Shown here: positions 2,978 through 62,747 of the stretch, piece by piece
Layout: every line of letters starts with the position of its first letter
Numbering within the stretch: the stretch's first letter is position 1
DNA from: Escherichia coli
GTDB lineage: Bacteria > Pseudomonadota > Gammaproteobacteria > Enterobacterales > Enterobacteriaceae
Assembly (NCBI RefSeq): GCF_003334765.1
Contig: NZ_QOWT01000014.1
Reading direction: 5' to 3' (one strand)
Length of the DNA: 64,000 nt
Program-made: the position numbers and the translations under genes
Notes under the pieces: generated by a model
Told to the model about the DNA's origin: nothing
Databases searched by the model: none
The model's input: the letters and a program-made list of their open reading frames with translations, nothing else

Positions 2978-3105
2978 AAGTGGATGCTACAGGTTGTAAC
3001 AAGTTACTGTCCAGACGTAGCTCACAAATAGGAATTCATCAAGATCTGGACATCTGATGAGCAATCCCTACAATCGCCGCGTACTTTAATTTTTCAGGAT
3101 ACATC

Positions 3106-4206
3106 ATGACCCCCGAACACCTTCCAACAGAACAGTATGAAGCGCAGTTAGCCGAAAAAGTGGTACGTTTGCAAAGTATGATGGCACCGTTTTCTGACCT
3201 GGTTCCGGAAGTGTTTCGCTCGCCGGTCAGTCATTACCGGATGCGCGCGGAGTTCCGCATCTGGCACGATGGCGATGACCTGTATCACATCATTTTCGAT
3301 CAACAAACCAAAAGCCGCATCCGCGTGGATAGCTTCCCCGCCGCCAGTGAACTTATCAACCAGTTGATGACGGCGATGATTGCGGGTGTGCGTAATAATC
3401 CCGTTCTGCGCCACAAGTTGTTCCAGATTGATTACCTCACTACGCTGAGTAATCAGGCGGTGGTTTCCCTGCTATACCATAAGAAGCTGGATGATGAGTG
3501 GCGTCAGGAAGCGGAGGCCCTGCGCGATGCACTGCGCGCGCAGAATCTGAATGTGCATCTGATTGGTCGGGCAACGAAAACCAAAATCGAGCTGGATCAG
3601 GATTACATCGATGAACGTCTGCCGGTCGCAGGGAAAGAGATGATCTACCGTCAGGTAGAAAACAGCTTTACCCAGCCGAACGCGGCGATGAATATTCAGA
3701 TGCTGGAATGGGCGCTGGACGTAACCAAAGGCTCAAAAGGCGATTTACTGGAGCTGTACTGCGGCAACGGTAACTTTTCATTAGCGCTGGCGCGTAATTT
3801 TGATCGGGTATTAGCCACCGAAATCGCTAAGCCGTCGGTTGCTGCTGCGCAATACAACATCGCAGCTAACCATATTGATAACGTACAAATTATTCGTATG
3901 GCGGCAGAAGAATTTACTCAGGCGATGAATGGTGTGCGCGAGTTTAACCGCCTGCAAGGGATCGACTTAAAGAGTTATCAGTGCGAAACCATTTTTGTCG
4001 ACCCACCGCGCAGCGGTCTGGACAGTGAAACCGAGAAAATGGTGCAGGCGTATCCGCGTATTTTGTACATCTCCTGTAACCCGGAAACGTTATGCAAGAA
4101 TCTGGAAACATTAAGCCAGACGCACAAGGTCGAACGTCTGGCTCTGTTTGATCAGTTCCCCTACACGCACCATATGGAGTGCGGCGTATTACTGACCGCG
4201 AAGTAA
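3106..4206 (+). CDS. trmA: tRNA (uracil54-C5)-methyltransferase
   Basis: 366 aa ORF recognised as TrmA; C-terminal SAM-dependent RNA methyltransferase motifs ([14 protein letters not shown]). Confidence 0.95.
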
Positions 4207-11528: not shown

Positions 11529-12680
11529 ATGAAAAACAAATTACCGCCATTTATCGAGATTTACCGCGCTCTGATTGCCACACCTTCAATAAGCGCCACG
11601 GAAGAGGCACTCGATCAAAGCAATGCAGATTTAATCACTCTGCTGGCGGACTGGTTTAAAGATTTGGGCTTCAATGTGGAAGTGCAGCCTGTTCCAGGAA
11701 CTCGCAACAAATTCAATATGCTGGCAAGTATCGGACAGGGGGCTGGCGGCTTGTTGCTGGCGGGGCATACCGATACGGTGCCATTTGATGACGGTCGCTG
11801 GACGCGCGATCCGTTTACACTGACGGAGCATGACGGCAAGCTTTACGGCTTAGGCACCGCCGACATGAAAGGCTTTTTTGCGTTTATCCTTGATGCGCTA
11901 CGCGATGTCGACGTCACGAAACTGAAAAAACCGCTCTACATTCTGGCGACTGCTGATGAAGAAACCAGTATGGCCGGAGCGCGTTATTTTGCCGAAACTA
12001 CCGCCCTGCGCCCGGATTGCGCCATCATTGGCGAACCGACGTCACTACAACCGGTACGCGCACATAAAGGTCATATCTCTAACGCCATCCGTATTCAGGG
12101 CCAGTCGGGGCACTCCAGCGATCCAGCACGCGGAGTTAACGCTATCGAACTAATGCACGACGCCATCGGGCATATTTTGCAATTGCGCGATAACCTGAAA
12201 GAACGTTATCACTACGAAGCGTTTACCGTGCCATACCCTACGCTCAACCTCGGGCATATTCACGGTGGCGACGCTTCTAACCGTATTTGCGCTTGCTGTG
12301 AGTTGCATATGGATATTCGTCCGCTGCCTGGCATGACACTCAATGAACTTAATGGTTTGCTCAACGATGCATTGGCTCCGGTGAGCGAACGCTGGCCGGG
12401 TCGTCTGACGGTCGACGAGCTGCATCCGCCGATCCCTGGCTATGAATGCCCACCGAATCATCAACTGGTTGAAGTGGTTGAGAAATTGCTCGGAGCAAAA
12501 ACCGAAGTGGTGAACTACTGTACCGAAGCGCCGTTTATTCAAACGTTATGCCCGACGCTGGTGTTGGGGCCTGGCTCAATTAATCAGGCTCATCAACCTG
12601 ATGAATATCTGGAAACACGGTTTATCAAGCCCACCCGCGAACTGATAACCCAGGTAATTCACCATTTTTGCTGGCATTAA
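11529..12680 (+). CDS. argE: acetylornithine deacetylase
   Basis: Recognised ArgE; start at [15 protein letters not shown] gives 383 aa. The ORF-track start at 11490 lies inside the ARG boxes. Confidence 0.93.
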
Positions 12681-12907
12681 AACGTAGGCCGGATAAGGCG
12701 CTCGCGCCGCATCCGGCGCTGTTGCCAAACTCCAGTGCCGCAATAATGTCGGATGCGATGCTTGCGCATCTTATCCGACCTACAGTGACTCAAACGATGC
12801 CCAACCGTAGGCCGGATAAGGCGCTCGCGCCGCATCCGGCACTGTTGCCAAACTCCAGTGCCGCAATAATGTCGGATGCGATACTTGCGCATCTTATCCG
12901 ACCTACA
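12681..12907. repeat. tandem duplication (about 123 bp unit, 2 copies) of a BIME made of two inverted REP palindromes
   Basis: Unit GTAGGCCGGATAAGGCGCTCGCGCCGCATCCGGC...GCCGCAATAATGTCGGATGCGATGCTTGCGCATCTTATCCGACCTACA occurs twice (from about 12684 and 12807), with only single-base differences visible. Confidence 0.9.
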
Positions 12908-13154
12908 CCTTTGGTGTTACTTGGGGCGATTTTTTAACATTTCCATAAGTTACGCTTATTTAAAGCGTCGTGAATTTAATGACGTAAATTCCTGCTATTT
13001 ATTCGTTTGCTGAAGCGATTTCGCAGCATTTGACGTCACCGCTTTTACGTGGCTTTATAAAAGACGACGAAAAGCAAAGCCCGAGCATATTCGCGCCAAT
13101 GCGACGTGAAGGATACAGGGCTATCAAACGATAAGATGGGGTGTCTGGGGTAAT

Positions 13155-15806
13155 ATGAACGAACAATATTCCGCATTGCGTAGTAATGTCAGTATGCTCG
13201 GCAAAGTGCTGGGAGAAACCATCAAGGATGCGTTGGGAGAACACATTCTTGAACGCGTAGAAACTATCCGTAAGTTGTCGAAATCTTCACGCGCTGGCAA
13301 TGATGCTAACCGCCAGGAGTTGCTCACCACCTTACAAAATTTGTCGAACGACGAGCTGCTGCCCGTTGCGCGTGCGTTTAGTCAGTTCCTGAACCTGGCC
13401 AACACCGCCGAGCAATACCACAGCATTTCGCCGAAAGGCGAAGCTGCCAGCAACCCGGAAGTGATCGCCCGCACCCTGCGTAAACTGAAAAACCAGCCGG
13501 AACTGAGCGAAGACACCATCAAAAAAGCAGTGGAATCGCTGTCGCTGGAACTGGTCCTCACGGCTCACCCAACCGAAATTACCCGTCGTACACTGATCCA
13601 CAAAATGGTGGAAGTGAACGCCTGTTTAAAACAGCTCGATAACAAAGATATCGCTGACTACGAACACAACCAGCTGATGCGTCGCCTGCGCCAGTTGATC
13701 GCCCAGTCATGGCATACCGATGAAATCCGTAAGCTGCGTCCAAGCCCGGTAGATGAAGCCAAATGGGGCTTTGCCGTAGTGGAAAACAGCCTGTGGCAAG
13801 GCGTACCAAATTACCTGCGCGAACTGAACGAACAACTGGAAGAGAACCTCGGCTACAAACTGCCCGTCGAATTTGTTCCGGTCCGTTTTACTTCGTGGAT
13901 GGGCGGCGACCGCGACGGCAACCCGAACGTCACTGCCGATATCACCCGCCACGTCCTGCTACTCAGCCGCTGGAAAGCCACCGATTTGTTCCTGAAAGAT
14001 ATTCAGGTGCTGGTTTCTGAACTGTCGATGGTTGAAGCGACCCCTGAACTGCTGGCGCTGGTTGGCGAAGAAGGTGCCGCAGAACCGTATCGCTATCTGA
14101 TGAAAAACCTGCGTTCTCGCCTGATGGCGACACAGGCATGGCTGGAAGCGCGCCTGAAAGGCGAAGAACTGCCAAAACCAGAAGGCCTGCTGACACAAAA
14201 CGAAGAACTGTGGGAACCGCTCTACGCTTGCTACCAGTCACTTCAGGCGTGTGGCATGGGTATTATCGCCAACGGCGATCTGCTCGACACCCTGCGCCGC
14301 GTGAAATGTTTCGGCGTACCGCTGGTCCGTATTGATATCCGTCAGGAGAGCACGCGTCATACCGAAGCGCTGGGCGAGCTGACCCGCTACCTCGGTATCG
14401 GCGACTACGAAAGCTGGTCAGAGGCCGACAAACAAGCGTTCCTGATCCGCGAACTGAACTCCAAACGTCCGCTTCTGCCGCGCAACTGGCAACCAAGCGC
14501 CGAAACGCGCGAAGTGCTCGATACCTGCCAGGTGATTGCCGAAGCACCGCAAGGCTCCATTGCCGCCTACGTGATCTCGATGGCGAAAACGCCGTCCGAC
14601 GTACTGGCTGTCCACCTGCTGCTGAAAGAAGCGGGTATCGGGTTTGCGATGCCGGTTGCTCCGCTGTTTGAAACCCTCGATGATCTGAACAACGCCAACG
14701 ATGTCATGACCCAGCTGCTCAATATTGACTGGTATCGTGGCCTGATTCAGGGCAAACAGATGGTGATGATTGGCTATTCCGACTCAGCAAAAGATGCGGG
14801 AGTGATGGCAGCTTCCTGGGCGCAATATCAGGCACAGGATGCATTAATCAAAACCTGCGAAAAAGCGGGTATTGAGCTGACGTTGTTCCACGGTCGCGGC
14901 GGTTCCATTGGTCGCGGCGGCGCACCTGCTCATGCGGCGCTGCTGTCACAACCGCCAGGAAGCCTGAAAGGCGGCCTGCGCGTAACCGAACAGGGCGAGA
15001 TGATCCGCTTTAAATATGGTCTGCCAGAAATCACCGTCAGCAGCCTGTCGCTTTATACCGGGGCGATTCTGGAAGCCAACCTGCTGCCACCGCCGGAGCC
15101 GAAAGAGAGCTGGCGTCGCATTATGGATGAACTGTCAGTCATCTCCTGCGATGTCTACCGCGGCTACGTACGTGAAAACAAAGATTTTGTGCCTTACTTC
15201 CGCTCCGCTACGCCGGAACAAGAACTGGGCAAACTGCCGTTGGGTTCACGTCCGGCGAAACGTCGCCCAACCGGCGGCGTCGAGTCACTACGCGCCATTC
15301 CGTGGATCTTCGCCTGGACGCAAAACCGTCTGATGCTCCCCGCCTGGCTGGGTGCAGGTACGGCGCTGCAAAAAGTGGTCGAAGACGGCAAACAGAGCGA
15401 GCTGGAGGCTATGTGCCGCGATTGGCCATTCTTCTCGACGCGTCTCGGCATGCTGGAGATGGTCTTCGCCAAAGCAGACCTGTGGCTGGCGGAATACTAT
15501 GACCAACGCCTGGTAGACAAAGCACTGTGGCCGTTAGGTAAAGAGTTACGCAACCTGCAAGAAGAAGACATCAAAGTGGTGCTGGCGATTGCCAACGATT
15601 CCCATCTGATGGCCGATCTGCCGTGGATTGCAGAGTCTATTCAGCTACGGAATATTTACACCGACCCGCTGAACGTATTGCAGGCCGAGTTGCTGCACCG
15701 CTCCCGCCAGGCAGAAAAAGAAGGCCAGGAACCGGATCCTCGCGTCGAACAAGCGTTAATGGTCACTATTGCCGGGATTGCGGCAGGTATGCGTAATACC
15801 GGCTAA
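13155..15806 (+). CDS. ppc: phosphoenolpyruvate carboxylase
   Basis: 883 aa ORF recognised as Ppc; conserved VLTAHPTE and C-terminal ...MRNTG. Confidence 0.97.
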
Positions 15807-28366: not shown

Positions 28367-28466
28367 GCCTGATGCGCTACGCTTATCAGGCCTACGCAAT
28401 CTCTGCAATATATTGAATTTGCGTGCTTTTGTAGGCCGGATAAGGCGTTCACTCCGCATCCGGCAC
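28367..28466. repeat. RIP-type BIME: two inverted REP palindromes flanking a central AT-rich (IHF-site-like) core
   Basis: GCCTGATGCGCTACGCTTATCAGGCCTAC - GCAATCTCTGCAATATATTGAATTTGCGTGC - TTTTGTAGGCCGGATAAGGCGTTCACTCCGCATCCGGCA. Confidence 0.85.
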
Positions 28467-28595
28467 TCTGTGCCAGTAATCTGAAACTCCCACGTTGTTC
28501 AGGAATTTTTTATCCGCTTCTGGACATTTTCTCTACAGAACAATCGTTAGCCCGGAAGGTCGAATCTGTGACTCTTATTTTCACGGACGAACCAG

Positions 28596-57583: not shown

Positions 57584-57683
57584 TGCCGGATGCGGCGCGA
57601 ACGCCTTATCCGGCCTACAAAAGTTTGCAAATTCAATAAATTGCAGAATTCATGTAGGCCTGATAAGCGAAGCGCATCAGGCA
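57584..57683. repeat. RIP-type BIME (third copy in window, opposite orientation)
   Basis: TGCCGGATGCGGCGCGAACGCCTTATCCGGCCTACAA - AAGTTTGCAAATTCAATAAATTGCAGAATTCATG - TAGGCCTGATAAGCGAAGCGCATCAGGCA. Confidence 0.85.
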
Positions 57684-57738
57684 TTTTTGCTTCTGTCATC
57701 GGTTTCAGGGTAAAGGAATCTGCCTTTTTCCGAAATCA

Positions 57739-62662: not shown

Positions 62663-62747
62663 GCAGGCAGGATAAGGCGTTTACGCCGCATCCGGCATTT
62701 GAGCAGGATGCCTGATGCGACGCTGATAGCGTCTTATCAGGCCTACA
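62663..62747. repeat. REP pair (BIME) downstream of cpxA
   Basis: GCAGGCAGGATAAGGCGTTTACGCCGCATCCGGCA and inverted GCCTGATGCGACGCTGATAGCGTCTTATCAGGCCTACA. Confidence 0.85.

Follow-up and report, generated by a model that had tools for sequence, protein, structure and literature searches.

We describe a tandem array of two near-identical units between argE and ppc in Escherichia coli. The array lies in the window (the 64,000-nucleotide stretch of E. coli DNA that was analysed), and each of its units pairs two REPs in inverted orientation; the repeated element belongs to the atypical BIMEs and can be called a REP doublet or REPIN-like unit. The best explanation, which we consider very probable, is that of an old atypical-BIME array in the argE 3' UTR, which gains and loses whole units in register and which was inserted in the ancestral argE terminator. 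A variable BIME array at this locus is a correct but ordinary observation, as tandem BIME copies at one locus are already known to be well conserved and to vary in number among strains (Ton-Hoang 2012, PMC3333891). What is added here is modest: a census of the locus, marker evidence for in-register exchange, a difference between K-12 stocks and a terminator origin of the spacer between the units.

The first-pass annotation of the window had described two adjacent two-REP copies of 123 bp between argE and ppc, differing at only a couple of positions, and two programs agree that the repeat is real. Tandem Repeats Finder gives a period of 123 with 1.8 copies, 98% matches and no indels (score 436) at 12683-12907, and a repeat finder collects 12680-12784 and 12803-12907 in a single direct-repeat family at 123-bp spacing, the offset at which a self-comparison had been proposed as a check. 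The periodic stretch is 228 bp long, that is, less than 2 x 123. There are two mismatches in the 102 aligned bases of the 102-bp copies (G12718/A12841 and G12760/A12883), a match well past chance. Each unit consists of a y-type REP, a 29-nt linker and an inverted z2-type REP (iREP), followed by a 21-bp spacer (Table 1). The whole array is extragenic, with the stop codon of argE (12680) on one side and the start codon of ppc (13155) on the other: its first REP begins 3 nt past the stop codon, and 250 bp separate the end of the array from the ppc ATG.

Table 1. Features of the argE-ppc region in the window (positions are those of the window)
Feature	Position	Strand	Basis
argE (acetylornithine deacetylase) CDS; stop codon TAA at 12678-12680	11529..12680	+	ORF list; RefSeq annotation of the identical sequence in strain WG1, same coordinates
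Unit 1, y-type REP; GTAG foot at 12684-12687; imperfect palindrome with AA/GC mismatch	12684..12717	+	Sequence; folds alone at -21.1 kcal/mol; GTAG and stem mismatch are REP features of PMC3333891
Unit 1, linker; 29 nt, locus-specific, no IHF consensus; G12718 differs between the copies	12718..12746	+	Linker query; IHF scan
Unit 1, inverted z2-type REP (iREP); ends in CTAC at 12780-12783; G12760 differs between the copies	12747..12783	+	Sequence; folds alone at -19.4 kcal/mol, z -5.4
Foot-to-foot spacer GTGACTCAAACGATGCCCAAC, 21 bp; 3' half GATGCCCAAC at 12796-12805	12785..12805	+	Aligned to the 5' arm of the BIME-free Citrobacter hairpin; the hairpin covaries
Unit 2: y REP 12807-12840, linker 12841-12869, z2 iREP 12870-12906; 98% identity to unit 1 (A12841, A12883)	12806..12907	+	
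What is left of the ancestral intrinsic terminator of argE: mini-hairpin of the loop, ACACC-TTT-GGTGT 12905-12917, 3' arm TTGGGGCGA 12921-12929, T-tract 12930-12935	12905..12935	+	Alignment to orthologous sequences of Citrobacter and Intestinirhabdus; covariation test
ppc (phosphoenolpyruvate carboxylase) CDS; ATG at 13155	13155..15806	+	ORF list; RefSeq annotation of the identical sequence

REPs are imperfect palindromes of 30-40 nt whose stem contains a mismatch and has a conserved GTAG 5' of its foot (PMC3333891). The first palindrome of unit 1 reads GTAG followed by GCCGGAT-AA-GGCG...CGCC-GC-ATCCGGC, the second is an inverted copy that ends in CTAC, and both fold as stem-loops. When the whole 102-nt unit is folded as RNA, one long hairpin is predicted (-58.2 kcal/mol, z -7.8), formed by pairing of one REP with the other; the region 12670-12945 reaches -124 kcal/mol (z -7.8). 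Both units also match the full length of the Rfam family naRNA4 (RF02564, the Y/Z2 unit of REP325): 12687-12780 with 56.7 bits (E 3e-9) and 12810-12903 with 53.3 bits (E 2e-8), scores that fall just under the gathering threshold of the family (59.5 bits). The single hairpin and the full-length matches together identify the unit as a REP doublet, that is, a BIME.

Thousands of genomes carry the unit at this locus. Every one of the 5426 complete E. coli genomes gave a match to a 781-bp query covering the region; the spans of these matches fell into several discrete lengths, and the alleles were counted with junction-specific queries over the same 5426 genomes. The linker is present in 3606 genomes (6200 places); it matches only the argE-ppc locus, and the number of places per genome is the copy number. 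The spacer junction is present in 1334 genomes (2592 places, with a median of two and a maximum of six per genome). Two other types are a 301-bp allele whose unit is truncated (1530 genomes; EC958, for instance, has lost the y REP and a portion of the linker) and a 411-bp allele that carries another element (285 genomes). The three types account for 5421 out of 5426 genomes. By the linker and junction totals, one-unit genomes number about 2272 and those with at least two units 1334; most of the latter have three, as MG1655 does (a class swollen by the numerous laboratory derivatives of K-12 among the genomes). A single junction was seen in five out of 39 sampled multi-copy genomes (about 13%), so the two-unit state of the window is a minority allele, found in roughly 3% of genomes. 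The maximum of nine linker places, beside the maximum of six junctions, indicates that at least one genome apparently has 7-9 units, or a duplicated locus.

The first-pass annotation had also suggested that copy number may vary between strains, and a comparison of intergenic lengths across E. coli bears this out: the lengths are 351, 474, 597, 720 and 843 bp, corresponding to one to five units (351 + 123n, with n = 0-4). Among the fetched strains, SLK172 has one unit, the window two, MG1655 and ETEC4090 three, CT29 four and NCTC9104 five (a synthetic six-unit query surfaced NCTC9104 and two-copy K-12 derivatives). The 250 bp upstream of ppc, including a block conserved across genera, are the same in all alleles and are left untouched by the changes in copy number. 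In the 411-bp allele (e.g. CUVET19-1704, L005 502-680) the BIMEs are replaced by an element of ~120 bp with a boxC-like core (GGGGAGAGGGTTAGGGTGAGGGG) and short flanking inverted repeats. The same kind of boxC-like core follows argE at the same position in Enterobacter, Lelliottia and Pseudocitrobacter (L061-L074, about 3104-3200).

Two variable positions within the unit (36 and 78) and a variant junction (CCGACcGACA...AACtGTAGG) were used as markers of exchange among the units. The pattern of MG1655 is (G,G)(A,A, variant junction)(A,A) and that of the window is (G,G)(A,A), which equals the MG1655 allele minus one unit, with an exchange within the ~95 nt that are identical between units 2 and 3. 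The window allele is best read, from these markers, as a one-unit contraction of a three-copy allele of the K-12 type. Other alleles carry different combinations: the unit with the variant junction is duplicated in CT29; the third unit of NCTC9104 is a chimera (A36, G78), as expected if units 3 and 1 had exchanged unequally, crossing over at some point between position 36 and position 78; and the one-unit allele of SLK172 is a chimera as well (G36/A78). All changes in copy number are exact multiples of 123 bp. The marker SNPs thus bear the signature of in-register homologous exchange or replication slippage. Whole 123-bp units are gained and lost through in-register exchange between units, and the same process keeps the copies near-identical; the most likely mechanism is either unequal recombination of sister strands or slippage of replication, acting on repeats that are ~100 bp long, and the REP-associated transposase TnpA_REP might contribute.

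It is unlikely, in our judgement, that TnpA_REP (a RAYT, or tyrosine transposase) adds and removes the units in place of host exchange or slippage, by CC|T cleavage in the inverted REP and the linker, rejoining of strands and the rolling-circle-like amplification modelled by Ton-Hoang et al. Exactly this mechanism has been proposed for copy-number variation in BIME-2 and atypical BIMEs (PMC3333891). Both REPs carry the binding determinants, namely a GTAG foot and a mismatch in the stem; the CC|TAC cleavage motif is found in the z2 foot; and the model of Ton-Hoang et al. can accommodate a first duplication that, as is required here, took 21 bp of host sequence with it. The z2 iREP, however, lacks the type I site TGCC|TGAT and has TGTC|GGAT instead. 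In addition, the variant junction CCGAC destroys the C|T cleavage dinucleotide and has nevertheless been duplicated in CT29 and NCTC9104, which argues against dependence on that site; and crossover intervals that fall anywhere in the long identical stretches, with length changes in whole 123-bp steps, are what a homology-driven process predicts. The SNP patterns themselves seem to fit both homologous exchange and TnpA_REP-mediated recombination, without separating them. We favour in-register exchange between units by the host.

Turnover is fast relative to point mutation, as genomes that are ~100% identical to the window over 25 kb have one, two or three units, and early K-12 stocks differ from each other (two units in WG1, three in EMG2). 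Such differences might also arise if one unit of an array were lost in assembly, in which case the window would truly have three units, as MG1655 does. The array (225-369 bp) exceeds typical short-read length, the window is otherwise ~100% identical to genomes of the K-12 lineage, and assemblies of MC1061 disagree: CP195014.1 has two units, and CP169569.1 has two junctions, that is, three units. But the identical two-unit allele is found in at least 22 independent complete genomes with a contiguous 25-kb match, the single-junction genomes make up about an eighth of the multi-copy sample (the 13% given above), and the alleles of one, four and five units show consistent marker patterns that collapse would not give (e.g. 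the chimeric unit of NCTC9104). We therefore regard a collapsed third unit in the window as very unlikely and keep the reading of a genuine one-unit contraction. The disagreement between the MC1061 assemblies may be real stock-to-stock variation or repeat collapse, and part of the apparent copy-number variation may be of this kind.

The near-identity of the two copies had been attributed in the first-pass annotation to recent duplication or to ongoing homogenisation; homogenisation is indeed going on, while the recent duplication finds no place in the distribution of the array or in its alleles (including the window allele, as a contraction of the three-copy one). argE and ppc are adjacent in 78 out of 80 loci retrieved from Enterobacteriaceae species, usually with an intergenic region of 240-270 bp and no REPs. 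An array is found in E. whittamii, with five diverged units, and in E. albertii, with two units, the spacer and a 14-nt remnant of a third unit. Because the architecture is the same in these two species, the array predates E. coli and is at least as old as the genus Escherichia. The first unit of E. whittamii shares 97% identity with unit 1 of E. coli, but only 92% with its own neighbour, and the inner units of E. whittamii, with 93-98% identity among themselves, have lineage-specific variants in common. These identities indicate that the edge unit behaves as an ortholog, and that the inner units have been homogenised or re-amplified in each lineage. Besides, the 21-bp spacer is missing from one-copy alleles, and a simple duplication of the present one-copy allele could therefore not have given the two-copy state. 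The near-identity of the copies in the window is accordingly a product of ongoing turnover in an array that is itself old, rather than of a first duplication in recent time.

Loci that have no BIME show where the spacer came from. In Citrobacter, Intestinirhabdus and related genera, argE is directly followed by a 56-nt hairpin and a T-tract; the loop of the hairpin is conserved (TAACCCTTTAGTGGTAA) and its arms are variable. RNAalifold predicts eight pairs in this hairpin, five of them with compensatory changes. A count of the pairs finds 89.6% of cells paired, with a covariation score of 0.47 as compared to 0.26 for shuffles (none out of 500 reaches the observed score) and 0.07-0.14 when the partners are slid. 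The hairpin and T-tract are the ancestral intrinsic terminator of argE. E. coli keeps the mini-hairpin of the terminator loop, the 3' arm TTGGGGCGA and the T-tract, and the 3' half of the spacer, GATGCCCAAC, aligns to the 5' arm; this half of the spacer is the 5' arm of the ancestral hairpin, now displaced. By these alignments the terminator is split by the last BIME unit, with its 5' arm on one side and its loop on the other, and the 5' arm has become part of the repeat unit of the array. A BIME inserted at this point explains three features: the confinement of the spacer to this locus, its absence from one-unit alleles, and the presence, in a genome of a cryptic clade (L010), of a single unit followed by an intact-looking hairpin. 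The candidate role of the spacer as a dispersed BIME motif was rejected, as a sensitive search of E. coli genomes (E <= 10) found no spacer outside the argE-ppc locus.

Whether the split terminator helix still forms is doubtful, and the terminator may no longer work: the reconstructed E. coli terminator without the BIME folds weakly (z -1.1), and a pattern scan of 12500-13300 found no canonical terminator. The same scan found no promoter on the + strand in that interval. REPs of other types stand in place of the terminator hairpin in Salmonella enterica subsp. arizonae, Citrobacter youngae ATCC 29220 and Kluyvera (L020, L018, L059, L087 and L088; about 3104-3200). REPs seem to have landed repeatedly at the argE 3' end, and the replacement of the terminator by other REP types or by boxC-like hairpins in other genera fits the idea that REPs substitute for 3'-end hairpins. 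Two other kinds of insertion were observed in the intergenic region. Salmonella, several Citrobacter, Atlantibacter and one Enterobacter have an ERIC/IRU-like element (CCCAGGGAGCTTACATAAGTAAGTGACCTGGGTGGG) that Escherichia lacks; it is inserted downstream of the conserved ppc promoter block, ahead of the ppc ATG (L014-L016, L020, L031, L050 and L082). In Enterobacter sp. BIGb0383 the argE-ppc intergenic region is 1313 bp long (L023 3104-4416), with an AT-rich insert that contains an ORF.

Two ORFs run through the array, 12668..12937 on the + strand (89 aa) and its mirror 12677..12892 on the - strand (71 aa), and both encode internally repeated peptides. The first-pass annotation had called them spurious, and the census gives reason to agree. 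The 123-nt period equals 41 codons, so the stop-free frame grows by 41 aa with each unit: it has 89, 130 and 212 aa at two, three and five units, respectively. PGAP has named the longer frames as 'hypothetical protein' (WP_000880425.1, 130 aa, in ETEC4090, L004 489-881; and WP_077712539.1, 212 aa, in NCTC9104, L006 1189-1827). These protein names and the presence of open frames on both strands could be taken to mean that the array encodes a real small protein; likewise, the naRNA4 matches, and the antisense transcription start sites reading into the REPs that are figured for the ppc-argE region (PMC7967276), could point to a dedicated small RNA which, like naRNA4, organises the nucleoid. But the length of the ORF merely follows the copy number, its start codon on the + strand is a TTG within argE, and it is absent or cut in the 1530 and 285 genomes with the 301-bp and 411-bp alleles and reduced to one unit's worth in the one-unit genomes. 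As for the small RNA, the naRNA4 scores stay under the gathering threshold, and the nucleoid role proposed for naRNA4 itself was not reproduced in a 2026 preprint (bioRxiv 10.64898/2026.03.23.713779). We find it extremely unlikely that the array encodes either product, and its ORFs, which disappear or shorten in most genomes, are spurious by-products of the repeat.

What the array does at the RNA level can be suggested from published work on REPs. On the argE transcript it would be a 3'-end element, whose hairpins would stall 3'-to-5' exonucleases and attenuate read-through towards ppc. Protein output falls when a REP lies within 15 nt of the stop codon, according to the summary of Liang 2015 given in PMC7967276, and translation of ArgE may be lowered because the first REP is so close to the stop codon. 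In tandem gene pairs that contain a REP, expression is biased to the upstream gene (bioRxiv 10.64898/2026.03.23.713779). The copy number may slightly tune such effects, or it may be neutral. In a stronger version, the array would be a copy-number-tunable valve in the 3' UTR that took over the argE terminator, where each added unit (with its copy of the 5' arm of the terminator) changes argE mRNA stability, ArgE translation or read-through into ppc, as a contingency-like switch. If so, the rapid gain and loss of units, even among K-12 stocks, would couple arginine synthesis to anaplerotic flux. We think that such a switch is quite improbable, and that tuning of argE and ppc expression by copy number is unlikely in general.

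The main value of these results lies in annotation and method, as gene callers make copy-number-dependent 'hypothetical proteins' from the array; different assemblies of one strain may also conflict at this site. Beyond this, the locus provides a clean and well-sampled case of a BIME array whose turnover by unit exchange is faster than point mutation, and an example of a REP pair that was inserted in a host terminator, part of which then became the spacer of an array. The general picture of REPs and BIMEs is left unchanged.

Among known systems, REP325 (with its unit naRNA4) resembles the argE array in having tandem two-REP units in a 3' UTR between co-directional genes. It is a six-fold tandem Y/Z2 array between yjdM and yjdN, whereas the array of the window has two units only, and the match of the argE unit to naRNA4 spans 94 nt against the 77 nt of the model because the argE linker is longer. 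REP325 acts as a terminator as well as an mRNA stabiliser (bioRxiv 10.64898/2026.03.23.713779). REPINs (Bertels and Rainey, PMC3116915 and PMC3337134) share with the argE unit the two inverted REPs, the short spacer between them and the single long hairpin, and the features recognised by RAYTs are present in both. But REPINs are whole doublets mobilised by RAYTs and dispersed at many loci, whereas the linker of the argE doublet is confined to one locus throughout the 5426 genomes; its multiplication has therefore been local and tandem, not by transposition.

The closest relatives are the BIMEs of E. coli (Gilson, Bachellier and Hofnung; PMC3333891). BIME-1 combines a y and a z1 REP in single copy with an L linker that has an IHF site, whereas the second REP of the argE unit has the length of z2 (37 nt) and its linker has no IHF site (a pattern scan of the linker found no IHF consensus at one mismatch or fewer). 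The possibility that the linker is a BIME-1 L motif was ruled out on this ground and by its lack of relationship to the AT-rich L motifs of the BIME-1 in the window. Four other BIMEs are found in the window, and served only as comparators: 28367-28470, 38205-38300, 57585-57685 and 62665-62745, of which three are BIME-1-type pairs with an AT-rich L motif (TGCAAATTCAATAAATTGCA-like) and one (62665-62745) is a Y-S-Z2 pair of the BIME-2 type. From BIME-2 the argE array differs in its linker (29 nt, against the 11-nt S linker of the pair at 62665-62745) and in its foot-to-foot spacer, which is a locus-specific piece that comes from the host terminator and not one of the dispersed s, l or r motifs. 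With a linker that is too long, and with linker and spacer both confined to argE-ppc, the array is filed as an atypical BIME. It shares the remaining properties that BIME-2 and the atypical BIMEs show: alternating inverted y and z2 REPs in tandem, an extragenic position at the 3' end of a gene, and copies that are nearly identical within the locus and variable in number among strains, with one to five units directly seen and up to six junctions per genome.
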